56,516 bases of DNA from Gammaproteobacteria bacterium (GTDB lineage Bacteria; Pseudomonadota; Gammaproteobacteria; UBA12402): NCBI GenBank assembly GCA_016930035.1, contig JAFGHQ010000044.1, positions 1 through 56,516 on the forward strand, read 5' to 3'. The translations under genes were made by a program, and so were the position numbers. A model generated the notes under the pieces. It was not told the DNA's origin. It made no database searches and saw nothing but the letters and a program-made list of their open reading frames with translations. Positions within the stretch are counted from its first letter, which is position 1, and every line of letters starts with the position of its first letter. Below, piece by piece: positions 7,315 to 56,292 of the stretch.

Positions 7315-7788
7315 ATGTCAATGAATTCTTCAATATCTGAACTTGCGATTCTCGAACGCTTGCTTGAACATGGTGTGGATATTAATGAGGCTAACAACGA
7401 AGGTGACACGCCACTGCATATGGCAGCGAGCTGCAATAATTTTTTGCAGACTGTTATGGCGCAATTCTTACTTAATGCTGGAGCAGATCCTGATTTGCCT
7501 AATAAGGATGGTGACACAGCCCTGCATTTGGCAGTGAAAGCGAGAAATGCTGATCTTAATGTGCGTGCAGCTATGGTAAAAGTTTTGCTTGATGCTGGTG
7601 CAAATTCTCATTTATTTAACAATGAGGGCAAAACGCCCGAAGATCTTGCGTTTGAGTCTAAAGAGAAGGGGAGCGAAGTAATACAGCGATTATTGGGGAA
7701 ATTTACAAGAAAAGAAAAAAGTCAACCCTTTGAGGAACAACACGATCAAGTAAAAGAAACAACGCCACAAAAACCTGCTTTTTTTTGA
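7315..7788 (+). CDS. Ankyrin-repeat protein (3-4 ANK repeats)
   Basis: Repeated ANK consensus (GDTPLHMAA, GDTALHLAV, GKTPEDLA, LLxxGAD/N). A GAGGAG RBS lies 8 nt upstream of the ATG. Confidence 0.85.
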   Translation: MSMNSSISELAILERLLEHGVDINEANNEGDTPLHMAASCNNFLQTVMAQFLLNAGADPDLPNKDGDTALHLAVKARNADLNVRAAMVKVLLDAGANSHLFNNEGKTPEDLAFESKEKGSEVIQRLLGKFTRKEKSQPFEEQHDQVKETTPQKPAFF

Positions 7789-10646: not shown

Positions 10647-11483
10647 CTAAATGGCCTTTTTATATAACTGATTCTTTTTCTTGCCGGTGATTTTGGCCAC
10701 AAGGGAGACGGCTTGTTTGGTAGGAAGTTCTTGAGAAAGGATTTTTAGCATTTTAAGATCCTGATCGTTTATCAATTTTTCATCAGTCTTATCAATTCCG
10801 TGAATGATCACCACAAATTCGCCTTGCTGTTGCTCCGGATTTTTCTTTATTTCGTCTAATAGTTCTACTAATGAACCGTCCGAAATGGTCTCAAACATTT
10901 TTGTCAGTTCGCGGGCAATAACCGCTTGCCGCTCTTGGCCAAAAACTGTTGTCATATCTTCTAGCATGGCAATAATACGATGCGGAGACTCATAAAAAAT
11001 CATAGTTCTTGATTCGTTTTGTAAATTTTCTAAATATTTGACTCGGGCATTGTGTTTTGCGGGCAAAAATCCCTCGAAAATAAAACGATCCGAAGGTAAT
11101 CCGGAAACGCTTAGTGCGGCAATAGCAGCACAGGCTCCAGGAACAGGAATCACATTTATATTTTCTGCTCTTGCTCTTCGCACCAGACGAAATCCCGGAT
11201 CGCTAATTAAAGGGGTTCCCGCGTCAGAAATAAGCGCAATGGATTTTGACTGTTGGAGTAACGTCATGATGTGCTCAATATCTTTTTCCTTGCTGTATTC
11301 ATGGAACGCAATCAACGGAGTTTTAATAGAGAAGTGGTGAAGTAAAGGCTTGCTATGACGGGTATCTTCTGCTGCAATAAAATCCACCTTTTTTAAGGTT
11401 TCAATAGCGCGAGAGGAAATATCCGATAAATTGCCAATAGGTGTAGCAACAATATAGAGCGTTCCTAAGTTACTCGATAACAT
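10647..11483 (-). CDS. rsmI: 16S rRNA (cytidine1402-2'-O)-methyltransferase RsmI
   Basis: LYIVATPIGNLSDIS..AAEDTRHS N-terminus and tetrapyrrole-methylase fold motifs. I prefer the ATG at 11483 (GAGGA RBS) over the track GTG at 11501. Either start overlaps the mvk stop. Confidence 0.88.
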   Translation of the reverse strand: MLSSNLGTLYIVATPIGNLSDISSRAIETLKKVDFIAAEDTRHSKPLLHHFSIKTPLIAFHEYSKEKDIEHIMTLLQQSKSIALISDAGTPLISDPGFRLVRRARAENINVIPVPGACAAIAALSVSGLPSDRFIFEGFLPAKHNARVKYLENLQNESRTMIFYESPHRIIAMLEDMTTVFGQERQAVIARELTKMFETISDGSLVELLDEIKKNPEQQQGEFVVIIHGIDKTDEKLINDQDLKMLKILSQELPTKQAVSLVAKITGKKKNQLYKKAI

Positions 11484-12486
11484 GTAATCCTCGGCTGGCA
11501 CCTCTTACAGGACTTAAATCATATTGATATTGCGCACAAATTTTCGTTACCGGCTCTTTATCGTCCGCGACAATGAGCACCATACCTCCATGATGACCTG
11601 CAACAGCTCCTGCCCCACAAATTTTAGCGGCCGCACCCACAGACTCGAGATCCTTAATGAAATTTTGTGTCGCCCCCGGAACAACGCCAATCCTCACGAG
11701 CAATCGATGATTTTGTTTTATTAAATCACGTATTTCGGCTAATTTTTGATTTTGTAAAGCCTGGTGCATATGGTTGGATATTTGCTCAAATTCATCCCAT
11801 AGTGCTCCATCATTTTTAAATCGTTCGGCAACATAAGTGACACATTCCCCCGTGCCCACCACAGGCGTTCCTGTATTAGCCATAAACATGGCAATATCAG
11901 GAAATTGGTACATTTGCACTTGTCCTGATTGAAAATAGACATAGCCTCCATGAAGAGAAGCGTGCAGGTCCAAACCGCTCGGGAAACCATGTTGTAACCT
12001 TTCTGCTTCATATCCTAATTTGAGCGCTTTTTCAGGATTAAGCTCTATCCTAAAATAGGCTGCAATAGCTTGAAGTACGCTCAAAATAACAGCGGCCGAT
12101 GACCCCATCCCGCACCCAATGGGAATCGTGGATTCTGTCTTAACATTAAACCCTTTGATAATTTTAGAATTTAAATGATCGAGAAAATTAATCAGTGTAA
12201 ATTGAGCTAATTCAAATGGCGTTTGCAAAACATCACGAATACCACATTCATTATTGACAAATAGTTGATATTTATGAAAAAGACGATTTTTGATTTCACG
12301 TAACGTTTGAATGGTAAAGGAGTCTTTATAGCGAAAATTCAACAAGCTGAATGAAATAAGTTTTGAAAATTGTGGCGTGATAGTGGTTTGCGCATATCGA
12401 TCCACAGCAATGGCTATTGCCGGTCGCCCATAAACGACAGCATGTTCACCTGATAAAATCAATTTTCCGGGAGAAATCGCTTTCAT
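11470..12486 (-). CDS. mvk: Mevalonate kinase (GHMP family)
   Basis: KLILSGEHAVVYG N-terminal motif and GHMP ATP motif PIGCGMGSSAAV. Its ATG overlaps the upstream stop (ATGA). Confidence 0.8.
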   Translation of the reverse strand: MKAISPGKLILSGEHAVVYGRPAIAIAVDRYAQTTITPQFSKLISFSLLNFRYKDSFTIQTLREIKNRLFHKYQLFVNNECGIRDVLQTPFELAQFTLINFLDHLNSKIIKGFNVKTESTIPIGCGMGSSAAVILSVLQAIAAYFRIELNPEKALKLGYEAERLQHGFPSGLDLHASLHGGYVYFQSGQVQMYQFPDIAMFMANTGTPVVGTGECVTYVAERFKNDGALWDEFEQISNHMHQALQNQKLAEIRDLIKQNHRLLVRIGVVPGATQNFIKDLESVGAAAKICGAGAVAGHHGGMVLIVADDKEPVTKICAQYQYDLSPVRGASRGLHVIE

Positions 12487-13667
12487 GTTATTTTTTCGTA
12501 AATACGCTTATGTTTCTCAATGCCCGCTAACCTAAAATCCCCTGTTTTGTACTGATGAGGGGTGAGAAATTTGGAGCCATCTTCCGGTAAACGAAAATGA
12601 TAAAATGTTTCGTAATCTTCATAGGATAGTGGATGCCGAAATGCAAGCATTTCTTTATGCGTTTCTGTTTTGAGTAAACTTTTATATTCGGGTTGTATCA
12701 TACCGCTAAAATATTCGGCCATGCAACCGGATCCATAACTGTAAAAACCAATTCGTTTTCCAGCCAAATTATCTGTTTTATTTTCTAAAGCTGAAATTAA
12801 GTTAACATATAATGCCGCTGTATAACTGTTACCGACTAATCGTGAATAAACCAAAGAATCAGCCACGACTGATTTGGCGGCCTCATCGGATAATTCTTGT
12901 TGATTAATTCTAGCAAGCAGTTTGTGGGCTTTTTCAACGAGACGTGGTACTGGGCTATGATAGCAATGTATATCCAAATCTTTAAATGTGCGCCCTGTTA
13001 CTTCTTTAAAGTGAGTCCAGGAGGACTCTAATGCTTTAAGATATAGCGTTGATGAATATTTGCCTTCCACGATGGCGGCTCGTTTGTATTGCGGCCTCCA
13101 AAAATCCATCACATCCTCAGTGTGAAGACCTGAACCAGATTCTAATGCGATCATACGGGGGTTAGTACTCAGTATCATAGCAACAGCCCCGGAGCCTTGA
13201 GATGATTCGGCCGCTGAATGTAAGCTATATTTTGCAATATCTGAGGCTATAATAAGTATTTTTTTGGAAGGATTTTGGAGTAGAAGCGCGCTGCCAAGCT
13301 TAAGTGCCGCAGTCATACCATAGCAAGCTTGTTTTAATTCAACGACACGGCAACGCAACGGCAAATTTAATAAACGATGAAGATACGTTCCTCCTGATTT
13401 CGATTGATCAAAAGCGGATTCCGTTGCAAAAAGCACCGTCTCAATGTCATTTAAATCAATATTTTTAAGTAGGCGGTAGGCAGCATTAGCCCCCATAGTT
13501 ACAATATCTTCGCAAGGAGCAGGAAGCGCCATTTTAAATTGGCCTAATCCCACGTGAAATTTATTCACGTCAATGTCTCGTTTTTGGGCTAAGATTTCAA
13601 GATCTAAATAATAATTGGGGACATAAAAATCAATTGCGTCAATACCTATTTGATGATTCATTAGCAT
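12483..13667 (-). CDS. mvaS: Hydroxymethylglutaryl-CoA synthase
   Basis: 394 aa of the thiolase-like/HMGS pattern, with an active-site Cys context (ELKQACYGMTAAL) and an N-terminal IGIDAIDFYVP. Confidence 0.85.
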   Translation of the reverse strand: MLMNHQIGIDAIDFYVPNYYLDLEILAQKRDIDVNKFHVGLGQFKMALPAPCEDIVTMGANAAYRLLKNIDLNDIETVLFATESAFDQSKSGGTYLHRLLNLPLRCRVVELKQACYGMTAALKLGSALLLQNPSKKILIIASDIAKYSLHSAAESSQGSGAVAMILSTNPRMIALESGSGLHTEDVMDFWRPQYKRAAIVEGKYSSTLYLKALESSWTHFKEVTGRTFKDLDIHCYHSPVPRLVEKAHKLLARINQQELSDEAAKSVVADSLVYSRLVGNSYTAALYVNLISALENKTDNLAGKRIGFYSYGSGCMAEYFSGMIQPEYKSLLKTETHKEMLAFRHPLSYEDYETFYHFRLPEDGSKFLTPHQYKTGDFRLAGIEKHKRIYEKIT

Positions 13668-13708
13668 TACCTTATCAAGAATTCGGCGCTATCGAATTCA
13701 ATAACCGA

Positions 13709-14776
13709 TCACGGATTCAAAATTTCTATACGTTTTTTTTGCTTTTTAGTTTTAGCCGATCTTTCGAGTACGCGATGACACCGCATTAACTCTCCAGGCA
13801 CTGTCTGGCTGGCAAGCAAAGATAATTCACCGCAAAGTACGGTAGCTGCAGCGATAATAGCCAAACGATGAGCATTATCTCCGGGTGGTACATCAGCTAA
13901 ACACCCCAGTTCTTTCAAATTTTCCTGAACAAAATCTAATTCCTTACCATTGCCTACTGTTCCTACAATAATATTAGGTAACGTAACTGAAAAATATAAA
14001 TCAGTTTTACAAATTTCAGCCGTCACTAAGCCTTGAGACCCTTCAATGATGTTAGCTGCATCTTGTCCCGTAGCTAAATAAAAAGCGAGCAGCATATTGG
14101 CGAAATGAGCATTCGCACTACGAATGCTTCCTGATAATATTGATCCGATCAGGTTTTTTTCAATATTAATTCTAACAATCTGTTCCGGTGTGATTTTTAG
14201 AATTTTCTCGCAAATATCTCGGGGAATGGTCATTTCAGCGACTACATTTTTTCCTCGCCCTAAAATCCCATTTACTGCGGAAACTTTTTTGTCCGTGCAA
14301 TAATTTCCAGAAATCGAACGATATGCTAAAACGGGGTATGCTTTTAAAAACCATTGCATGAGTGAATCAGCTGATTGAGTTACCATGTTATGGCCTGATG
14401 CATCCCCTGTAAAAAATTCAAATCTTGTGTATAAAAGATGGCCGACAATTTGAAAGTGTATATCTAAAAGTTTGGCAAAACGACTTGTTTGAGCAATAAC
14501 GGCTTGCAATTCTTGTTTACGATTTTTTGCCTCCTGAATAATTTTTAACGCAGTTTCTGCATCAGGCGCTTTGAAGATGACCGAACGGGTCATTCGATCA
14601 TCGATCAAAGTTACGTAAATACCCGCTGATTCCCGAGAAACTCGAGCACCTCGATTGACAGAAGGCCACAGGGGTGATTCAAAGGTAGCGAGTGGAACCA
14701 TGACCGTTTCAGGGGTGCTATCAATGATAATCTTTACAGGGCCGACTGCCCGCATAGGGATTTTTGCTATATTCAT
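13709..14776 (-). CDS. Class I-type HMG-CoA reductase catalytic domain (compact, 355 aa)
   Basis: Has SGNYCTDKK (catalytic Lys region), GQDAAN (Asp) and the C-terminal LMRCHRV (His). Variant motifs are DASGHN (usually DAMGxN) and GTVGNG (usually GTVGGG). Confidence 0.8.
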   Translation of the reverse strand: MNIAKIPMRAVGPVKIIIDSTPETVMVPLATFESPLWPSVNRGARVSRESAGIYVTLIDDRMTRSVIFKAPDAETALKIIQEAKNRKQELQAVIAQTSRFAKLLDIHFQIVGHLLYTRFEFFTGDASGHNMVTQSADSLMQWFLKAYPVLAYRSISGNYCTDKKVSAVNGILGRGKNVVAEMTIPRDICEKILKITPEQIVRINIEKNLIGSILSGSIRSANAHFANMLLAFYLATGQDAANIIEGSQGLVTAEICKTDLYFSVTLPNIIVGTVGNGKELDFVQENLKELGCLADVPPGDNAHRLAIIAAATVLCGELSLLASQTVPGELMRCHRVLERSAKTKKQKKRIEILNP

Positions 14777-27338: not shown

Positions 27339-28367
27339 GTGACCGCAAAAACTAATACTAATGATAAACTAAAAAAAGCGAATCGAGTCTTAGAAGAAAT
27401 TGCAAAAACCATCCCTCATATCACGCCTGTGACTCCAGCAGATAGAGCATTATTTGAGGATTTCTTTAACCGAGAAGCGCGCCATACCTACGGGAATTCC
27501 TGGATTTATGTGACCCAGGGAGTCTATGGCATTGGGCCTAACAATCTAGGCTATAAATACTATGACGGCGAAAATTTATGCATGCTCTGCATTTATCCCA
27601 AGATAGAACAGCCTGATATTTTGATGATGTACTGGGTTAGACCATTAGGTAACAGCATGCTTGACATTATTGCAGCCTTAGCTACTCAGATTCAGAAAAA
27701 ATATGGCATATCTTGCTATGTCAAAAAACTTTTTAAAGATCAATATGATTATTTAGTGGCAAAAGGATTTAAAGACGCCAGGCTATTCCCTTGGCATTCC
27801 TCTTGTCCCTTAGAAGATGATACTTTCCCAGAAATGATATTCAATAGAATAGAAACATTAAACGCTGTTAGAACATCTGGGAGAAAAAAGGATATAGGAA
27901 ACTCTTTTAGAGAAGCATTAAAATTAGCTTGGGATAATAAAATGGAATTAACAGAAAAAAATTTTTCTAAGAACGCTTTCAAAATAACACAACAATATTT
28001 TGAAGACTTATATAAAAATACTAAAAAAATTAACATATCAAGTGTTATTGACTATATCAATATGATTTCTGATAGCTTTTATGGAGATAATATCAGGAAA
28101 CTAATTTTGGTTAATGATGTCCCGATGGGCTTTTTTATAACTCAGACATCTACCATATTCAACACAAACAACATATATGCGCACTTTGCATTACGTGAAA
28201 GATTAAAATATTTATCAGATTATTTATTGATAAAATTATTTGAAACCTGTGGCTCAACTTATATCAACTGGGGAGGTTCAGAAGATATAGGGATACATCG
28301 ATTCAAAGCTAAATATCACCCAATAAAAAAAAATAAAATGTATTGGGTTACCAATTATCCCTTATAG
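27339..28367 (+). CDS. Hypothetical protein, possibly DUF2156-like (MprF/LysX C-terminal, double-GNAT fold)
   Basis: 342 aa with a GTG start. The spacing pattern (ITPVTPADRALFEDFF..NSWIY..YKYYDGENLCML..RPLG..) resembles my memory of stand-alone DUF2156 proteins. No catalytic motif was verified. Confidence 0.35.
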   Translation: MTAKTNTNDKLKKANRVLEEIAKTIPHITPVTPADRALFEDFFNREARHTYGNSWIYVTQGVYGIGPNNLGYKYYDGENLCMLCIYPKIEQPDILMMYWVRPLGNSMLDIIAALATQIQKKYGISCYVKKLFKDQYDYLVAKGFKDARLFPWHSSCPLEDDTFPEMIFNRIETLNAVRTSGRKKDIGNSFREALKLAWDNKMELTEKNFSKNAFKITQQYFEDLYKNTKKINISSVIDYINMISDSFYGDNIRKLILVNDVPMGFFITQTSTIFNTNNIYAHFALRERLKYLSDYLLIKLFETCGSTYINWGGSEDIGIHRFKAKYHPIKKNKMYWVTNYPL

Positions 28368-29149: not shown

Positions 29150-29509
29150 AAAATTTCATAAAAAATATTGACAAACATTAACTATTAACAAGTTAATCGC
29201 CCCTTAAGCCCAATTATAATAGAAAATATATAATACAAAATCTGTCAATGTCAATTTATTTTTAAATGTTTTTATTAGATATTAACATTTCCTTGACAAT
29301 GTTCATTTCCATGTTACGCTATGCTTGTGGTTAAGTTTGAGCGGTGGAGCTTGAAAAATAATGCCTGCTTAAACACGAACTTAAGGCCTCCAATAACATA
29401 AAAACAACTACTTTTAAGATACGTGTTAAGTCTAATAACACCATAACGGGCTATTCTTGAGTAGGACGCCACCGCTCTCTTTGGTTTCAACACTTTGAGA
29501 GTATATCTT

Positions 29510-30001
29510 ATGGACATTTCAGCGACAACTATTCCTAGGCCAGAATATTTTAATGATAGAGCTTTCCCTTCTATTTCGCGTTCTTCAAAAAAACATTCCA
29601 AAACTTCAAAACGCGCACAGCCTTTCCATATTTTAATTGTCGAAGATAACAATATTGAACAGCATATTTATCGCGTCATCGTAGAGGAACGAGGTTTTGA
29701 ATGTACTATCGTAGGAACGGGCAAAGAAGCTTTAGAACAGTTTGCTAAAGGCGATTATCATGCCATGATTTTAGATGTGGGTTTGCCCGATATGACTGGA
29801 ATCGATGTGTGCGAAAAAATTCGTCAAGCAGAACTTAAAACGCATGCCCATTTGCCCATTCTTGTGATGACGGCTTATGGGGATATGGTTGAGGAGCAAT
29901 GTCGAAAGGCGGGCTGTGATGATTTTGCTACTAAGCCAGTTCTAGAAGCTTCTACCTATGACCATTTTTTCAATTCTTGGCTTCCTAAAAATCCTCAGTA
30001 A
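29510..30001 (+). CDS. Stand-alone response-regulator receiver (CheY-like) with a ~40-aa N-terminal extension
   Basis: ILIVEDNN acidic pocket, phospho-acceptor context AMILDVGLPDMTG, VMTAYG (Thr) and ATKP (Lys). There is no output domain. The ATG at 29510 lies inside the track ORF that starts with TTG at 29495. Confidence 0.8.
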   Translation: MDISATTIPRPEYFNDRAFPSISRSSKKHSKTSKRAQPFHILIVEDNNIEQHIYRVIVEERGFECTIVGTGKEALEQFAKGDYHAMILDVGLPDMTGIDVCEKIRQAELKTHAHLPILVMTAYGDMVEEQCRKAGCDDFATKPVLEASTYDHFFNSWLPKNPQ

Positions 30002-30023: not shown

Positions 30024-33000
30024 TTATTTTGACGTCATTTTTTCATGTAATCTTTTGGCTTGTAAAACAAACGCTTCTAAATTGGCTTCGACCATTTGAG
30101 GGAAAGGATTGCCATCTGTTTCTAAAAATAAACACGGAAAAGTATCCATATCTTTATATTGAAGTGCGACTTGTTCCTCGCCGCGTATTCGTTGCTTGCC
30201 CGCAACGTTCATTTCTTTGCGTAAAATGGCTTCCGCCACGCGAGATGGCATGCAACCAAAAGGACCAATACAAATCACGCCACAAGAAGTGTGTAAAATC
30301 TCTCGTAATGCTAAGCCAACGGTTAATATTCCTTCTCCTTCCAGTCTCTTATGAATTAAATGATGTGCAGTTTGTATGGTTTTAGCAACGTCGATCATCT
30401 CATATCGATATAATCCGGATTTCGCTAATATCGATTTAATATACTTTTCCCACCATTTTTGAATTTGAGTGATGATTTTAATTTTAATGCGTTCAAGAAA
30501 GGAGAACTGAGTACCATTGATTTTATGATTCATAATGTAATTGCTGTAACAAATATATTCACTGACGGGCGCGACTTTGACCATGAAACCACGCTCTTCC
30601 AGATAATCGATAATATTTTTGCGAGAAAACTCCTCATTTCTGACATAAATTTCACCCACCAAAGAAATCACAGGAACAGTCCGCGGATCTTTTCGTAATG
30701 GGATTTGCACAAGCCGTTTATTGACGGTCGTCAATGTTTTCGTTAAAGAATACGTGGATGTGCCGGCAAAATAAGGTAACAATAGGTTTTGCCAGAGCGC
30801 TTCATATTCCGCTAAAGCTGCATCCTTATTTTGTGCTGTAACGGCCAGCATACTTTTGATTTGATCTAACACTTCAGCAATAACCATCACTTGCCAGCTA
30901 CGGAGTAATATTTTGTTACCCAAACCTGCGTAACCATTTTCATCGCTAATAGTTAATACCGCCACATTGGATAATTGATGCTTTTCGATAACGTTTTCCA
31001 ATGCTTTGGCATACTGTCCTAAGCGGCAAGGGCCTTTGCCCGTCGCCATTAAAAATAAAATGATTTTATTGTTGTTGGGTTTGGTTTTTAGCGCTGACAA
31101 AAAAGAACCCGTTGTGAGTATGTACGGCAAACATTCTTTGCAGAGCGTATTTTTCTTGCCTTCCAGCAAGACATCTTTATCAGGGACAGGCAAAGCCCGC
31201 GCTTGAATCCCAAAACGACGAAATATGGCTGAAATTGCTTCCGTACCTAGTCTTCCTAGCGGCGGAAGCCAAACTTCGACTTGTGGGTCACGTAAGGAAT
31301 ATTGAGTGTTATCCGCAGTAATAACGTAGGGTTCTTTACCATAAACAACGCGCACAGGTTTATACGGTGCGCTTGTTACTTTAGATGTTGAGTTAAACAC
31401 AGTTCGGTACGCCTTCATGATACTAAGCGCGGCTTCAATCCGAGTGTCTATGCCTGCATCGGCGGTATGCTGATCAAGCTCTATGGTCAGCGACGGTTTT
31501 GTGCCCATATCATGACGAAAATACCCCAGCACAAAAGAATCGGGGCCACAAGAGAAGTTCGTGATATAAAAACCAAATAAATTTTCTTTTTCTTTGATCA
31601 TCTGAGCTGTTTGCAAAATTTTCTGGCCCATCGCCCAATATACTTTTTCATCGCATTGGTAGTTTTTAAGCGGCAGCATATCAAATGGAATAGTCATGAT
31701 CCCTCTAGAGGCTATTTTATGGGGGATGCCCATGTTCACATCGTCAGCAAAAGCATTATAAGGCCGACCCAAAAGTACGATACCAAAAGTTTGGGGGTGA
31801 GCATCTAAATAAGCTAGCGCTTTTTTGCCATAGTCTAATAATTCTTGTTCAAATTGATATTGTTTTTGGGAAGCCTCATCAAATGCTTTTTCAGCCAATT
31901 TTTTAGATACTCCCATTTCTAATGCCATATTCATGAAAAGGTCTCTTGCTTGCTCATAGCCTTGATTCATGTTCAAAATAGGCGAGAGGATTTGGGTGTG
32001 AACTTGATTAATTTCCTTGCGGAAAGTTGTTTTTAAATAATAAGGTTCCCCTTGAACAAAAACACAGGTTTTACTGTGAATTTTCGCATCAGGTTTTGAT
32101 ATCGGAATTTCTTTAATGTGTGGCAAAAAAATATAATCGAGGTCTTTTTTAATTAAATGGAGAAAACTGCCGTGACTTATTTCTGCTGGCAGGCAAAATG
32201 AGGATTCAATACGAGCAATGCCAGCAGGATCAATACGATCAGCTAGAACGATCTCAAAACCGAGTTGGTGAAAAAAGTGTGTATAAAGTACCGCCAAGGA
32301 GTGCGTTAAAAAAGAGCGCATGATCCCAACTGTTTTTCGTTTTTCGGCATGATATTGGGCATTTGACGGAAAATAATCACGAAACAACAAACGTTGTCGT
32401 ATAGCAACATAATTAAATTCGCCGGGATTTACTTCATGATGAAGTCTTAAGTTGTAGTAGCGATCGCATGCCCCACCGAACGGGTACATCTTGTCGTTGA
32501 TTTTTATTTTGGCAATTTCACATTTTCGATCACAGCGCTCCTTGCCTCCCGCGCAGACGAAATGACCCACTGTTTCTGCTTTTCTGGTGATTAATTCATC
32601 AAGATTCACGTTTTCAGGGGACATTAATCCGAGCTCTAGTTGCTTTTTTACTTCCAGCGCCACCCCGAAAGCTCCCATCAGACCTGGGTCCGGAGGTACG
32701 ACAATGGGCGTTTTGAGCAAGGATGCCATAGCAACAGGTACGGCTTTGTTATAACACACACCACCTTGCATGAATATTTTTTTATCAACAGGTCGCGCCC
32801 CCTTCACTCTATTAATATAGTTTAAGCAAATGGAATAGACGAGACCTGCAAGAATGTCGTTTTTGCTGATCCCTTCTTGACCAGCGCGCTTGATATCGCT
32901 CGATATAAATGCTGCGCATTGATCCGTAAAATTTGGTGGTGTTTGCCCTTGCAAAGCCAAATCCCCAATCTCTTCCGTGGGAATGTTTAATGATTCTTTG

Positions 33001-34319
33001 GAAGATTCCTCAATAAAAGAACCTGTGCCGGCACTACAAGCTTCATTCATCGCGTAATCAGAAGGAACGCCGCCAGTTAAATAGGTATATTTAGCATCTT
33101 GGCCGCCAATTTCAAAAATAGTATCCACGTCCGGATCAAAAAAAGCCGCGGCAGTAGCATGAGCAATGATCTCATTAATAACAAAACGAGAGAGTGCATG
33201 TAGTGCTGCGATCTGTCGACCCGAACCTGTCACACCTAAGCCAACAATTTTGATAGGCACATCACCAATTTGTTCTCGAATGGCTTTATAACACATCTTT
33301 GATGCTTCAATAGGGTTACCATTCGTGCGCCCGTAAACCGAGGCAGCAATTTTTTGTTTTTCTTTATGGAGCAATACTGCTTTAGTGGTAGTTGAACCAA
33401 CATCGAGCCCTAAAATACAAATATCCCCTTCAACGAGTTTAATACGGCTACTTTCTTTAAAATGAATGAGGGAAGTGGATTTATGAAGCGGTTCATGGAA
33501 TCCGAAGGAATAGGTGGTTTTGTTGACTATTTGTTGAAGGTTATCAGGTACTTTTATACATTCATTTTCCAACGCCCACAAAGCGGCGCCATAAGCTTCA
33601 AATGTAGCTGATAGTTTTGGCACTTCAACGCTTGGCAATCGGTTTGATAAAATTTGGATCAAAGTGGGATTAAGTGAGCCCCCGCCGATAAAAGTTATTT
33701 TTTCACATTCCTTATCTTTAACCAGTTCTAGCATTCTGTCAGCCATCATGTGACAAAGGCCTGCAACGATATTTGGGCGAGGTTCCCCTTTGTTGAGAGC
33801 GTGTGTACAATCACTTTTGCAAAATACACTGCAACGGCCTGCTATTTTGTGAGGAGTACCATGACTGCTGAGTTTAATAGCTTCTTCCAACGTCAAATTC
33901 ATCCTTTTAATTTGCTGTAGGAAGAATTCTCCCGTTCCAGAAGCGCATTTATTACCCGAATAAACTGCAATGATATGACCGTTGGGGCTTATTTTGTAGG
34001 CGAGCTGGGTTTCTCCTCCAGAGCTAATGACAAAATCAGGAAAATCGGAGGCCACATATTCTTTTTGTATAGCATGTTCAAGGGCTACTGCCTCAGCAAT
34101 CGAACTTAATTGGACATTTTTTCTAAAACTTCTTCCTGTAACCGCAAGCTTATCAATCGTGGTTAAATCAAGCGTGTTGAGAAAATTCAGGAAAGTTTTT
34201 TTCGGATCACCTTCGTGGAGAATTCTATGAGAAGATTCTACACGGGTGACATCAGCATCATTATACAGTAAGACGTTTTGTAATGTGGTCGCTCCAAAAC
34301 ATATGCCTAACGTGCGCAT
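30024..34319 (-). CDS. 1431-aa fusion protein. Two BcrAD/BadFG-type (HgdC-like) activase ATPase domains are joined to DUF2229/2-hydroxyacyl-CoA-dehydratase-like Cys-rich domains.
   Basis: Domain 2 has the canonical LGLDVGSTTTK, EIGGQD and cluster Cys contexts (EACSAGTGSF, DQCAAF). Domain 1 has a degenerate GICFGATT but keeps NKCASGTGEF and GRCSVF. Cys-rich motifs lie downstream (CAGGKERCDRKCE, GACDRYYN, FSCGPDSF, GKGPCRLGQY, CIGPFGCMPSR). Confidence 0.8.
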   Translation of the reverse strand: MRTLGICFGATTLQNVLLYNDADVTRVESSHRILHEGDPKKTFLNFLNTLDLTTIDKLAVTGRSFRKNVQLSSIAEAVALEHAIQKEYVASDFPDFVISSGGETQLAYKISPNGHIIAVYSGNKCASGTGEFFLQQIKRMNLTLEEAIKLSSHGTPHKIAGRCSVFCKSDCTHALNKGEPRPNIVAGLCHMMADRMLELVKDKECEKITFIGGGSLNPTLIQILSNRLPSVEVPKLSATFEAYGAALWALENECIKVPDNLQQIVNKTTYSFGFHEPLHKSTSLIHFKESSRIKLVEGDICILGLDVGSTTTKAVLLHKEKQKIAASVYGRTNGNPIEASKMCYKAIREQIGDVPIKIVGLGVTGSGRQIAALHALSRFVINEIIAHATAAAFFDPDVDTIFEIGGQDAKYTYLTGGVPSDYAMNEACSAGTGSFIEESSKESLNIPTEEIGDLALQGQTPPNFTDQCAAFISSDIKRAGQEGISKNDILAGLVYSICLNYINRVKGARPVDKKIFMQGGVCYNKAVPVAMASLLKTPIVVPPDPGLMGAFGVALEVKKQLELGLMSPENVNLDELITRKAETVGHFVCAGGKERCDRKCEIAKIKINDKMYPFGGACDRYYNLRLHHEVNPGEFNYVAIRQRLLFRDYFPSNAQYHAEKRKTVGIMRSFLTHSLAVLYTHFFHQLGFEIVLADRIDPAGIARIESSFCLPAEISHGSFLHLIKKDLDYIFLPHIKEIPISKPDAKIHSKTCVFVQGEPYYLKTTFRKEINQVHTQILSPILNMNQGYEQARDLFMNMALEMGVSKKLAEKAFDEASQKQYQFEQELLDYGKKALAYLDAHPQTFGIVLLGRPYNAFADDVNMGIPHKIASRGIMTIPFDMLPLKNYQCDEKVYWAMGQKILQTAQMIKEKENLFGFYITNFSCGPDSFVLGYFRHDMGTKPSLTIELDQHTADAGIDTRIEAALSIMKAYRTVFNSTSKVTSAPYKPVRVVYGKEPYVITADNTQYSLRDPQVEVWLPPLGRLGTEAISAIFRRFGIQARALPVPDKDVLLEGKKNTLCKECLPYILTTGSFLSALKTKPNNNKIILFLMATGKGPCRLGQYAKALENVIEKHQLSNVAVLTISDENGYAGLGNKILLRSWQVMVIAEVLDQIKSMLAVTAQNKDAALAEYEALWQNLLLPYFAGTSTYSLTKTLTTVNKRLVQIPLRKDPRTVPVISLVGEIYVRNEEFSRKNIIDYLEERGFMVKVAPVSEYICYSNYIMNHKINGTQFSFLERIKIKIITQIQKWWEKYIKSILAKSGLYRYEMIDVAKTIQTAHHLIHKRLEGEGILTVGLALREILHTSCGVICIGPFGCMPSRVAEAILRKEMNVAGKQRIRGEEQVALQYKDMDTFPCLFLETDGNPFPQMVEANLEAFVLQAKRLHEKMTSK

Positions 34320-53551: not shown

Positions 53552-56146
53552 TTAATCTCTGTGTTTTTTTACCCAATTTTCAACCTCGGCGAGTGCTTTA
53601 GGTAGTACTTTGGGATTATTGCCGCCCCCTTGTGCCATATCAGGGCGTCCGCCGCCCTTACCGCCAATTTGTTCAGCAATCATTTTGACCAGCTCCCCGG
53701 CATGGAGTTGTTTGGTTAAATTCTGCGTGATTCCGGCAACCAGATGAATGTTTTCTTCATCCACCCCCGCTAAAACGACAACAGCTTTTTTAAGTTTATT
53801 TTTGAATTGGTCAACCATGGTCCGCATGTTTTTGATCTCAATGCCGCTCAATTCAGCGGTTAAAATATGAACATCCTGTATTTTTTTGACGTGTGAAAGT
53901 AATGCATCGGCTTGATTTTGAGTCAATTTCGCTTTTAATTGTCCTAGTTCGCCTCGTAATTGGAATTGCTCGTCCAGAATTTGCTGGAGTCGCTCTAATA
54001 AGCGAGATTCATCTGTTTTAAGTAGAAACGCTGCCTGATTCAACAATTCAAATTTTTGATTAATAAAATCTAAGGCTCCTTGTGCCGTGACAGCTTCAAT
54101 GCGACGAATGCCGGCCGCAACGCCTGTTTCCGAAACAATTTTAAATAATCCAATATCGCCCGTGCGATTAACGTGTGTACCCCCGCACAGTTCAATGGAA
54201 AAATCGCCCATACATAACACACGAGCTTTTTCACCATATTTCTCGCCGAATAATGCCATGGCGCCTTTTGATTTGGCTTCTTCGGGAGACATGATTTCAG
54301 TTTTAACAAGATCATTAGCACGAATTTGTGCATTGACCATGGTCTCGATCGCTGAGAGTTCTTCAGGAGATACGGGGCGCATGTGTGAAAAATCAAATCT
54401 CAATCGATCGGGCGCCACCAGAGACCCCTTTTGCTCCACATGTTTGCCTAAAATGCGGCGCAATGCGCCATGCAGTAAGTGAGTGGCAGAATGATTAGCG
54501 GCAATGGCTTTTCGCCGTCTCTCGTTAATGGCGGTTTTAACTAAATCACCGAGTTGAATACCGCCTTTCTCAAGATAGCCATAATGCAGATAAGTACTGC
54601 CGATTTTTTGAGTGTCTTCAACGACGAATTTAGCGGTTGGAAATTCTAAAATTCCCGTATCGCCGACCTGCCCTCCTGATTCTGCATAAAATGAAGTACG
54701 ATCTAAGACCACGATACCTTTATCGCCCGCCTCCAGTTTTTTGGTGGGAGTATTATCTTTAAGTAGCGCTACGATCGAGCCATTGCCGCTTATATCTTCA
54801 TAACCCATAAATTCAGTAGGTTGTTGTGTACTGAATAATTCATTGTAATCAACGTCAAAATGACTTGCTTCTTGAGAACGTTTGCGTTGTTCATTCATCT
54901 CGCGCTCAAAGCCCGCCTCATCAATAGATAGACCATGTTCTTTTGCGATAACTGCGGTTAAATCGGTTGGAAATCCATAAGTATCGTAAAGTTTAAACAC
55001 CATATTTCCAGGAATGGTTTTCAGTTTGGGATATTGTTCAAGATAATCCTCTAGGATTTTCAATCCATGATCGAGCGTTTTTGCAAAGAGTTCTTCTTCT
55101 AGGAGTAACGTGTCTTCAATAATAACTTTGCGGTCCATTAAAATAGGATATGCTTCCCCCATCAGTTCGACGAGAGGTGTTACTAATTTGTAAAAGAAGG
55201 GTTCTTGAACGCCCAGTTTGTTGCCATGTCGAAGCGCTCGTCTAATGATGCGTCTTAACACATAACCGCGGCCTTCATTGGAAGGATACACGCTGTCTGC
55301 GATTAGGAACGCAGCGGAACGAATATGATCGGCAATTACGCGAACCGACGGGGATTGGTTGTCTATTGTTTTTGTTATTTTTAGGATGGCTTGAATCAAA
55401 TCTTGAAATAAGTCAATTTCGTAGTTGTTATGGACGCCTTGCAAGATAGCAGCGATGCGTTCTAAACCCATACCCGTGTCAATGGAAGGATTGGGTAATG
55501 GCGTCATGTTACCTTCAGCGTCTCGGTTAAATTGCATGAAAACCAAATTCCAAACTTCGATATAGCGATCGCCATCTTCATCGGGACTGCCCGGAGGCCC
55601 TCCTGGAATTTCCTCGCCGTGATCGTAGAAAATTTCAGAGCAAGGGCCGCATGGGCCTGTATCGCCCATCGACCAAAAGTTTTCATCAAGACGGATGACG
55701 CGGTTTTTTGTTATGCCAATTTCCTTTATCCAAATATCTGCTGCGTCATCATCATCTTTATAAACTGTGACCCAGAGTTTTTCTTTAGGGAGTTTGAATA
55801 CTTGAGTTAAACATTCCCATGCAAATTGAATGGCTTCTCGTTTAAAATAATCGCCGAAACTAAAATTACCGAGCATTTCAAAGAAGGTATGGTGTCGTGC
55901 GGTAAACCCGACATTTTCTAAGTCATTATGTTTTCCACCAGCGCGAACGCAACGTTGCACTGTCGTGGCGCGTGTATAAGGGCGTTTGTCAAGACCTAGA
56001 AAGACATCTTTGAACTGTACCATCCCGGCGTTGGTGAATAAAAGTGTGGGGTCATTGCCTGGGACTAAAGAGCTGCTTGGGGCTATTTGATGTCCGCGCT
56101 CTTTGAAATAATTTAAGAAAAGTTTTCTGATTTTGTTGGTTTTCAT
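53552..56146 (-). CDS. alaS: Alanine--tRNA ligase
   Basis: Class II aaRS motifs ([37 protein letters not shown]), editing-domain HxxxH (HSATHLLH .. CGGTH) and a C-terminal DHHA1-like [12 protein letters not shown]. The ATG at 56146 lies inside the track ORF that starts with TTG at 56161. Confidence 0.96.
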
Positions 56147-56292
56147 AGAAATAGTTCTCAATGGGTAAGAAAAGTTGAAACAGTTTATATCATAAGTTAT
56201 GAGTAAAAGGTAGGGGGTTGGTTTGGGTTTTATTGGAGGTGATTTTGGTAATCGTAGGTTGGGTTGAGGGGGCTGTTGGGGTCTGCGCGTGT

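Follow-up and report, generated by a model that had tools for sequence, protein, structure and literature searches.

A Divergent Single-Chain Member of the PlsA/Ger Family of Ether-Lipid Enzymes in an Unplaced Gammaproteobacterium

Gene and domain organisation

The gene under study lies at 30024..34319 on the reverse strand of contig JAFGHQ010000044.1 (56,516 nucleotides, assembly GCA_016930035.1, Gammaproteobacteria bacterium of the lineage UBA12402), which was analysed over its whole length and is referred to below as the window. Its product, a protein of 1431 amino acids (aa), is on balance probably a self-contained, oxygen-sensitive, ATP-driven ester-to-ether lipid reductase of the PlsA/Ger family, within the benzoyl-CoA reductase/2-hydroxyacyl-CoA dehydratase (BCR/HAD) or "archerase" superfamily. 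One unbroken open reading frame (ORF; ATG start, 4,296 bp) was found at this position, and all six motifs quoted in an earlier note on this DNA were located in its translation (GICFGATT at residue 5, NKCASGTG at 123, GRCSVF at 161, LDVGSTTTK at 305, EACSAGTG at 426 and DQCAAF at 466). The chain is made up of two activation domains (Act1, Act2), a linker and two reductase-like modules (Red1, Red2), the positions of which are collated in Table 1.

Table 1. Features of the gene and its product in the window (AF2: AlphaFold2 model).
Feature	Residues (aa)	Position	Strand	Basis
Whole gene, PlsA/Ger-family protein, Act1-Act2-linker-Red1-Red2	1431 in total	30024..34319 (stop codon included)	-	ORF, translation, homologues
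Act1, ASKHA/HgdC-type domain with non-canonical nucleotide motifs	1-255	33555..34319	-	HadI alignment, Foldseek, motif conservation
Act1 phosphate-1 loop GICFGATT, Cys for catalytic Asp	5-12	34284..34307	-	Clade conservation, comparison with E. faecalis PlsA
Act2, canonical activator ATPase	300-560	32640..33422	-	Pfam BcrAD_BadFG, PDB matches
Linker mini-domain, C589-x6-C596-x3-C600-x17-C618	585-620	32460..32567	-	Cys conservation
Red1, DUF2229 module, conserved C709/C752/C924	655-990	31350..32357	-	Pfam, Cys conservation, DCCP and MbdO/N folds
Red2, second reductase-like module, PlsR-equivalent, conserved C1063/C1098/C1356	1005-1431	30027..31307	-	AF2 model, Cys conservation

The Shine–Dalgarno sequence of the gene is weak, a promoter and terminator scan gave no signal above the shuffled expectation, and no transmembrane segment was found in the protein. 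Full-length homologues with 56–75% identity to the 1431-aa protein were retrieved; the full-length homologues number at least 7,900 (the search was saturated) and are collinear with the protein over its full length. With the C-terminal 861 aa as query, 607 clusters (50% identity) were obtained at E ≤1e-30.

These data bear on the alternative that the gene is a non-functional relic, or that an assembly or binning artefact has joined a Fibrobacterota gene to a gammaproteobacterial contig. Beyond a small uncultured group, the nearest relatives are indeed found in Fibrobacterota (55–61% identity), but the ORF is unbroken, every conserved motif and cysteine is kept, and both the GC content (0.41) and the GC content at third codon positions (0.36) agree with those of the adjacent housekeeping genes. 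On one contig of 56.5 kb it has secB/rhodanese to one side and polA to the other, and the contexts of its closest homologues (69–75% identity), with gidB, parA and parB, look gammaproteobacterial as well. The gene was judged to be intact, and a relic or an artefact is highly improbable.

The architecture claimed in the earlier note was borne out by Pfam, NCBIfam and fold matches, which give two activator-type ATPase domains fused to ca. 860 aa of Cys-rich, reductase-like sequence. Pfam BcrAD_BadFG matched two stretches (E 1.3e-56), the best being aa 303–555, and NCBIfam TIGR00241 ("acyl-CoA dehydratase activase") reached 231 bits, its cutoff being 125. The chain was modelled with AF2 as two overlapping halves (aa 1–620 and 571–1431) from an alignment of 59 homologues. 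For the model of aa 1–620 (predicted local distance difference test, pLDDT, 87.7; predicted template modelling score, pTM, 0.76), the best PDB matches (Foldseek) were HadI, HgdC, MbdQ/MbdP and DCCP-R, with E values down to 2.6e-20 and template modelling (TM) scores per target of 0.76–0.90. Act2 was matched to the PDB entries 4eht (E 3.2e-28) and 1hux (E 1.4e-25), and aa 1–252 alone were aligned with the HadI activator 4eht at E 5e-16, with C125 and C163 placed on the HadI cysteines of DKCAAGTG and STCTVF. In the crystal structures of HgdC and HadI, those two cysteines ligate the bridging [4Fe-4S] cluster. Both ligand pairs named in the earlier note are kept (C125/C163 in Act1, C428/C468 in Act2), and the ASKHA fold with two cysteines per domain, as in HgdC/HadI/BcrAD activators, is present; the ligand role of the Act cysteines would carry over from the HgdC/HadI structures by analogy.

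The nucleotide motifs of Act2 are canonical (LDVGSTTTK and EIGGQDAK), and its phosphate-1 loop is near invariant (197–201 of 202 sequences at every position from 304 to 313). Act1 reads G-I-C7-F-G-A10-T-T..Q14 in the phosphate-1 loop and S99-x-G-G-E103-T104 where D/E-x-G-G-Q-D is canonical. The two domains do not form two equivalent competent nucleotide sites: in Act1 the Asp, Ser and Lys of phosphate-1 are missing, as are the acidic residues of phosphate-2, and the same is seen throughout its clade.

All full-length family representatives that were examined keep the four linker cysteines, the Enterococcus faecalis plasmalogen synthase PlsA (EfPlsA) among them. In the AF2 models the linker consists of short beta strands of lower confidence; it is a candidate for an additional metal or Fe-S site. 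Within Red1, Pfam DUF2229 was matched at aa 663–882 (E 3.5e-49), and for Red2 no Pfam match was obtained, though the module was modelled confidently by AF2. The top three PDB matches of the model of aa 571–1431 (pLDDT 86.9, pTM 0.85) were DCCP (6eno), DCCP (7yzm_A) and chain 9gai_A of 3-methylbenzoyl-CoA reductase, with 9gai_E in fifth place; these fold matches are weak (E 2.4e-3 to 1.7e-2, TM 0.31–0.45 per target). When the family profile was compared with PDB sequences, only activators, together with chance-level NDUFS5 matches, were returned for the reductase half. An alignment of Red1 with Red2 (hhalign) was not significant (E 0.013); C709 is placed on C1063 and C752 on C1098 in it, a correspondence that would be as expected for an alpha/beta-like internal duplication.

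No match to Pfam HGD-D (PF06050) was obtained in the 1431-aa protein even at E values up to 10. Of the earlier description of the C-terminal part as dehydratase-like, the DUF2229 domain and the reductase-like fold stand, whereas for the last 550 aa the label is carried by the fold only, since HGD-D was not detected. The earlier framing would make the protein a fused 2-hydroxyacyl-CoA dehydratase, or a benzoyl-CoA-reductase-type fermentation enzyme, with its own activator. The activator domains are closest to HadI, HgdC and MbdQ/P in sequence and fold, and the catalytic part weakly matches MbdO/N, but the missing HGD-D match argues against this assignment, as do the NCBIfam benzoyl-CoA reductase equivalogs (BcrA/D and BzdQ subunits), which scored 88–104 bits and thus far under their cutoffs of 312–578. 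Close to the gene, neither the window nor any of 84 related loci contains CoA-transferase, acyl-CoA or fermentation genes, and the DUF2229 architecture is that of PlsA/Ger (PMC13159169). A fermentation enzyme of this kind is very unlikely.

Membership of the PlsA/Ger family

The combination of two BcrAD_BadFG domains with DUF2229 and a further reductase part is found in the plasmalogen synthase PlsA/PlsR and in Ger, a glycerol ester reductase (PMC13159169, PMC12838417, PMC11150832). The anaerobic plasmalogen synthase PlsA/PlsR is credited to Jackson et al. 2021 by the papers through which it is cited here (PMC9702350, PMC12838417), and Ger has been described as a "modified PlsA" (PMC13159169). 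PlsA/PlsR and Ger act on membrane glycerolipid esters, as was validated by anaerobic expression in E. coli (PMC13159169, PMC12838417, PMC11150832), where vinyl and alkyl ether lipids were formed with the BBD+ architecture under anoxia only, or mainly so (PMC13159169). The single-gene plsA forms measure 4.2–4.9 kb and comprise the modules Act1, Act2, Red1 and Red2 (PMC12838417), and mono- and diethers are the product of Ger from Desulfatibacillum alkenivorans (PMC11150832). The proposal of an uncharacterised system with an unknown substrate was abandoned, because enzymes with the same four modules have been validated as acting on membrane glycerolipid esters.

Single-gene PlsA is known from E. 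faecalis, Lactococcus cremoris and Bifidobacterium longum, and PlsA-PlsR from Clostridium perfringens. The E. faecalis gene was found on metagenome contigs with the aid of a published cloning primer used as an exact DNA pattern (L084:1622-5869), and the recovered gene of 4,248 bp is equal in length to the published one. EfPlsA (EF1327/Q835P9) and the L. cremoris enzyme have 1415–1436 aa, compared with 1431 aa here. The 1431-aa protein was aligned with EfPlsA over aa 5–1370 (26% identity, E 3e-101), which provides full-length homology to a validated PlsA/Ger member, at 26% identity only. The four modules of PlsA/Ger, namely two BcrAD_BadFG domains, DUF2229 and a second module (aa 1005–1431), are joined in one chain, and the order Act1-Act2-linker-Red1-Red2, the collinearity and the arrangement as a stand-alone gene are likewise shared with PlsA. 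In its loci the gene usually stands by itself, as would be expected of an enzyme that acts on bulk membrane lipid.

Cysteine conservation was determined with 66 full-length representatives of the family (clustering at 50%), which were aligned with the 1431-aa protein, EfPlsA and a clade member from Desulfatibacillum sp. (P0122). Fourteen cysteines are common to these three proteins and to 65 of the 66 representatives, the exception (P0402) having no Act1. They comprise C125/C163 and C428/C468 in the Act domains, C589/C596/C600/C618 in the linker, C709/C752/C924 in Red1 and C1063/C1098/C1356 in Red2. Taken with the EfPlsA alignment, these cysteines place the protein in the PlsA/Ger family, and membership of the BCR/HAD superfamily of ATP-driven low-potential electron injection, as first proposed for it, was upheld.

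The protein is not a PlsA in the strict sense: it does not share a clade with validated PlsA and does not have canonical motifs in both Act domains. EfPlsA, unlike it, has a canonical Act1 loop (GIDVGSTTVK) and an acidic phosphate-2 motif, scores 307 bits with DUF2229 (168 bits here) and has a weak HGD-D match.

More distant systems were compared in the same manner. HgdC/HadI with HgdAB/HadBC and BcrABCD/MbdONPQ share with the 1431-aa protein the ATPase fold, two ligand cysteines per activator domain and three cysteines per catalytic module, and they likewise couple ATP to low-potential electron injection into a carbonyl. They differ from it in that the present protein is a single chain with one non-canonical ATPase half, an extra four-cysteine linker and no HGD-D match, and in that the substrate of HgdAB/HadBC and BCR is a CoA thioester, whereas a lipid ester is presumed here. 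Among known structures, DCCP (6eno, 7yyl/7yzm) matches the C-terminal 861 aa best, with a probability of 1.0 at E 2.4e-3, and DCCP-R matches the ATPase domains, but the match to DCCP is low (TM 0.43–0.45 per target, 13% identity). DCCP binds its [8Fe-9S] cluster with six cysteines; these lie on one 421-aa chain of a two-component system, whereas three plus three cysteines are distributed over two modules here.

The Act1 loop and its clade

In the clade of the window protein, the phosphate-1 loop of Act1 follows the pattern G-x-C-x-G-[AS]-[TS]-T (Cys7 in 194 of 198 aligned members), and the phosphate-2 motif reads S-x-G-G-E-[TN]. Further cysteines of the clade are C167 and C171 (each in 200 of 202 sequences) and C189 (183 of 202). 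EfPlsA has GIDVGSTT at the Act1 loop, in a small transitional group (31–38% identity) position 7 is occupied by D, N or E, and the canonical Asp/Ser/Lys is found in Act1 of EfPlsA and of all more distant representatives. The Cys-loop clade spans Fibrobacterota, Desulfobacterota, Ignavibacteria, Bacillota, Spirochaetota and several archaeal groups. Domain 1 had been regarded as degenerate; its non-canonical nucleotide motifs are real, but the exchange of Asp for Cys is not local decay, since Cys7, and S99/E103/T104 with it, are conserved across phyla.

C7, C167, C171 and C189 are specific to the clade, absent from EfPlsA, and mostly co-occur (C163-x3-C167-x3-C171, then C189); at the place where ATP would otherwise be bound by Act1, they might provide an additional metal or redox site. 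The stretch with these cysteines also gives chance-level matches to NDUFS5 (CHCH-type).

Second full-length copies of the gene were observed within a few genes of the first in five loci (L008, L035, L038, L072 and L074). The copy in L008 starts with MKTLGVCCGATT and belongs, by this start, to the same Cys-loop clade. Two further family proteins (P0458 and P0544) suggest a transfer of the enzyme into a eukaryote.

Gene neighbourhood and host

Upstream of the gene, on the same strand, lie genes for a rhodanese and secB; downstream follow a convergent receiver-domain ORF, a TrmB-like helix-turn-helix gene, an ORF without assignment and polA. The receiver and TrmB neighbours, pointed out in the earlier note, are not conserved beside the gene in its closest relatives (75% and 69% identity) and are therefore taken to be incidental, and the receiver ORF, being convergent, has no link to the gene. 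The 342-aa ORF between polA and the TrmB-like gene (27339-28367, +) has no Pfam match. Nor has a 112-aa ORF (29314-29652, -), which lies on the opposite strand, in overlap with the 5' part of the receiver ORF, and is possibly no real gene.

The homologue with 75% identity (L081 6580-13368) has AMMECR1/Memo as neighbours to one side and, to the other, a radical SAM gene; AMMECR1, Memo and radical SAM are the three parts of the "AmmeMemoRadiSam" system. In "Coxiella sp. DG_40", the source of the homologue with 69% identity, the gene has an aldehyde dehydrogenase to one side and an ATP-grasp gene to the other, with a monogalactosyldiacylglycerol (MGDG) synthase nearby. A conserved neighbourhood was rejected as a clue to function, no neighbour family being present in more than 9 of the 84 loci.

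Desulfobacterales alone have a recurring set, which includes CDP-alcohol phosphatidyltransferase, nitroreductase, an ATG22-type transporter of the major facilitator superfamily (MFS), GDPD, a FabH-like protein, radical SAM, MurJ and YhdP. The set has a phospholipid flavour and may represent a lipid-remodelling locus. At L094/L095 434-13131 the gene is placed amid radical SAM, FabH-like KAS III, MurJ, a double CDP-alcohol phosphatidyltransferase, nitroreductase, ATG22-type MFS and GDPD genes. Of these, the genes for MurJ, phosphatidyltransferase, nitroreductase and MFS were seen again in 6–8 other Desulfobacterales loci; the loci concerned, 4–8 per gene family, are among L015, L017-L019, L026, L032-L034, L036, L046, L050, L051, L056 and L065.

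The contig carries the origin-proximal genes gidB, parA, parB, yidC and mnmE, a mevalonate cluster and a gene for an ankyrin-repeat protein. The best relatives of the alanyl-tRNA synthetase (AlaRS; 53552-56161, -) are generic Gammaproteobacteria (such as Kaarinaea, Thioalkalivibrio and Thiodiazotropha) at 61–62% identity, and no relative above 62% was found among 5.8 billion proteins. The host is a deep-branching gammaproteobacterium. Its description as a reduced, host-associated genome of Legionellales type is unproven, and the assignment to Legionellales was not adopted because AlaRS has no close relative. In the host of the 75%-identical homologue, LptD, GidB, ParB and ParA are 30–64% identical to those of the window.

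Genes for a GHMP kinase, a hydroxymethylglutaryl-CoA (HMG-CoA) synthase and an HMG-CoA reductase are adjacent to one another at 11470-14776 (-) and belong to the mevalonate pathway, which is unusual in Gammaproteobacteria and known in the Coxiella and Legionella lineages. A 157-aa ankyrin-repeat protein with the look of a eukaryote-type effector is encoded between gidB and parA (7315-7788, +) and gives a hint of a host-associated way of life.

In a neighbour-joining tree the gene was grouped with about ten uncultured homologues, that of Coxiella sp. DG_40 included, and this group falls within or beside Fibrobacterota (Chitinispirillales), far from other Proteobacteria. The clustering with Fibrobacterota versions suggests an old horizontal transfer. 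Fibrobacter is plasmalogen-rich according to older literature, for which our literature search found no support.

Discussion

The function of the family is known from its validated members, and their relation to the clade of the window protein was considered for Ger in particular. Ger from Thermotoga maritima (Tmari_0479/AGL49404) and from D. alkenivorans (SHJ90043) was compared by published size and architecture only. It shares with the 1431-aa protein the Pfam "BBD" core, which is common to all alkyl-ether producers according to the authors (PMC13159169). Of the two D. alkenivorans proteins, Ger (SHJ90043; 159 kDa, given as 1458 aa in the supplement) is active, and Ger2 (SHK01260, 153 kDa) was inactive in E. 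coli (PMC11150832).

The clade member P0122 from Desulfatibacillum sp. (1458 aa, 159.1 kDa) is 47% identical end to end to the 1431-aa protein, and its size is that published for Ger SHJ90043 (PMC11150832 and supplement). This match was rejected as proof that Ger is a clade member, as proteins of 1461–1463 aa also exist outside the clade. It is also unsafe because the labels and lengths of Ger and Ger2 appear swapped or duplicated in the supplementary Table S2 of PMC11150832, where SHJ90043 and SHK01260 are both given as 1458 AA, unlike in the main text. No entry named D. alkenivorans was present among the best 120 matches of the Desulfatibacillum sp. protein. The published Ger architectures contain several HGD-D matches (BBDHDDH, BBDHDHDH), so that the clues to whether Ger belongs to the clade conflict: the size of P0122 speaks for it and the HGD-D-rich architecture of Ger against it.

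Several observations weigh against a lipid reductase. The 1431-aa protein and EfPlsA (24–26% identity) belong to separate deep clades with a very long branch between them. HGD-D matches were absent from the 1431-aa protein and from two other clade members and were present in several representatives outside the clade; as the published Gers do have such matches, the validated Gers may lie outside the clade. Ger2, which is 25.9% similar to Ger, gave no ether lipid in E. coli (PMC11150832), and it could be the representative of the window clade in D. alkenivorans. The similarity between Ger and Ger2 corresponds to the same distance as that between the 1431-aa protein and EfPlsA. In the field, PlsA and Ger are held to be inseparable by sequence (PMC13274423, PMC11868695), and no lipid gene adjoins the gene in the window.

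The main alternative is that of an ATP-driven Fe-S reductase of the same kind, the Cys-loop clade of which would be a distinct paralogue with a substrate other than an sn-1/sn-2 acyl ester (another ester, a thioester or a small molecule). In its favour, besides the long branch and the lack of an HGD-D signal in the clade, unlike in the architectures published for Ger and PlsA, an Act1 site peculiar to the clade (C7, S99, E103 and T104) occurs together with C167, C171 and C189, and D. alkenivorans carries two ca. 26%-similar paralogues, one of them inactive (PMC11150832). By fold the closest match is to DCCP, which reduces acetylene and similar compounds, and a metagenome-assembled genome of Pontiella desulfatans has a clade member (L062), while cultured Pontiella showed no ether lipids (PMC11868695). 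On the other hand, the protein shares all 14 of its cluster-type cysteines, and its order of modules, with a validated plasmalogen synthase, clade members in Desulfobacterales stand among phospholipid genes, and no genes of an alternative pathway recur beside the gene. The clade is abundant in ether-lipid-producing Desulfobacterota, and the Desulfobacterales and Syntrophales, which are rich in it, are classic producers of alkyl glycerol ethers (PMC11150832, PMC13159169). The plasmalogens ascribed to Fibrobacter would count on the same side. A paralogue with a different substrate is considered unlikely, though it is the strongest rival.

If the protein is the ester-to-ether lipid reductase preferred here, a mechanism can be proposed by homology to the BCR/HAD archerases, from which we infer the pseudo-dimer geometry, the cluster types, the single active ATP site, the lipid substrate and the type of ether. 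Act1 and Act2 would fold together into an intramolecular pseudo-dimer with one bridging [4Fe-4S] cluster on C125/C163 and C428/C468. ATP hydrolysis at Act2, which has all canonical motifs, would gate the injection of an electron of very low potential, with Act1 and its conserved but non-canonical site (C7, A10, Q14, S99, E103 and T104) probably its partner in a structural or regulatory role. The electron would be passed, possibly through the four-cysteine linker, to Fe-S clusters of Red1 (C709, C752 and C924) and Red2 (C1063, C1098 and C1356). There the acyl ester carbonyl of a membrane glycerophospholipid would be reduced via a ketyl-type intermediate and then dehydrated, and the product would be an alk-1-enyl (plasmalogen) lipid or, if reduction goes further, an alkyl ether lipid.

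A bolder view, which is put forward only tentatively and is doubtful at present, is that the large, phylum-spanning Cys-loop clade is an uncharacterised one in which Act1 has been rebuilt into a redox or metal site. The enzyme would then be a one-ATP-per-electron or redox-gated archerase, its substrate or product could differ, and a Coxiellales-like group of gammaproteobacteria would have gained it from Fibrobacterota. If this were true, the clade could hold the determinant, missing so far, that decides between alkyl and alkenyl ethers, or be a non-lipid reductase.

Conclusions

[quoted passage not shown] The anaerobic ether-lipid enzymes were identified only in 2021-2022, and to our knowledge none has been purified or structurally solved. 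The protein of the window is a divergent member of this family, the function of which has been known since then, and not an unknown system.

What remains of interest is the Cys-for-Asp site of Act1, as a clade marker and possible mechanistic variant, and the fact that an unplaced gammaproteobacterium carries the gene. The GxCxG[AS]TT loop of Act1, together with S99/E103/T104 and C167/C171, is a sequence marker that splits the family into deep clades and may track the product type; in the field, PlsA and Ger are so far held to be inseparable by sequence. Chiefly, the gene extends the list of likely makers of ether lipids by a gammaproteobacterial host, probably through transfer from Fibrobacterota.

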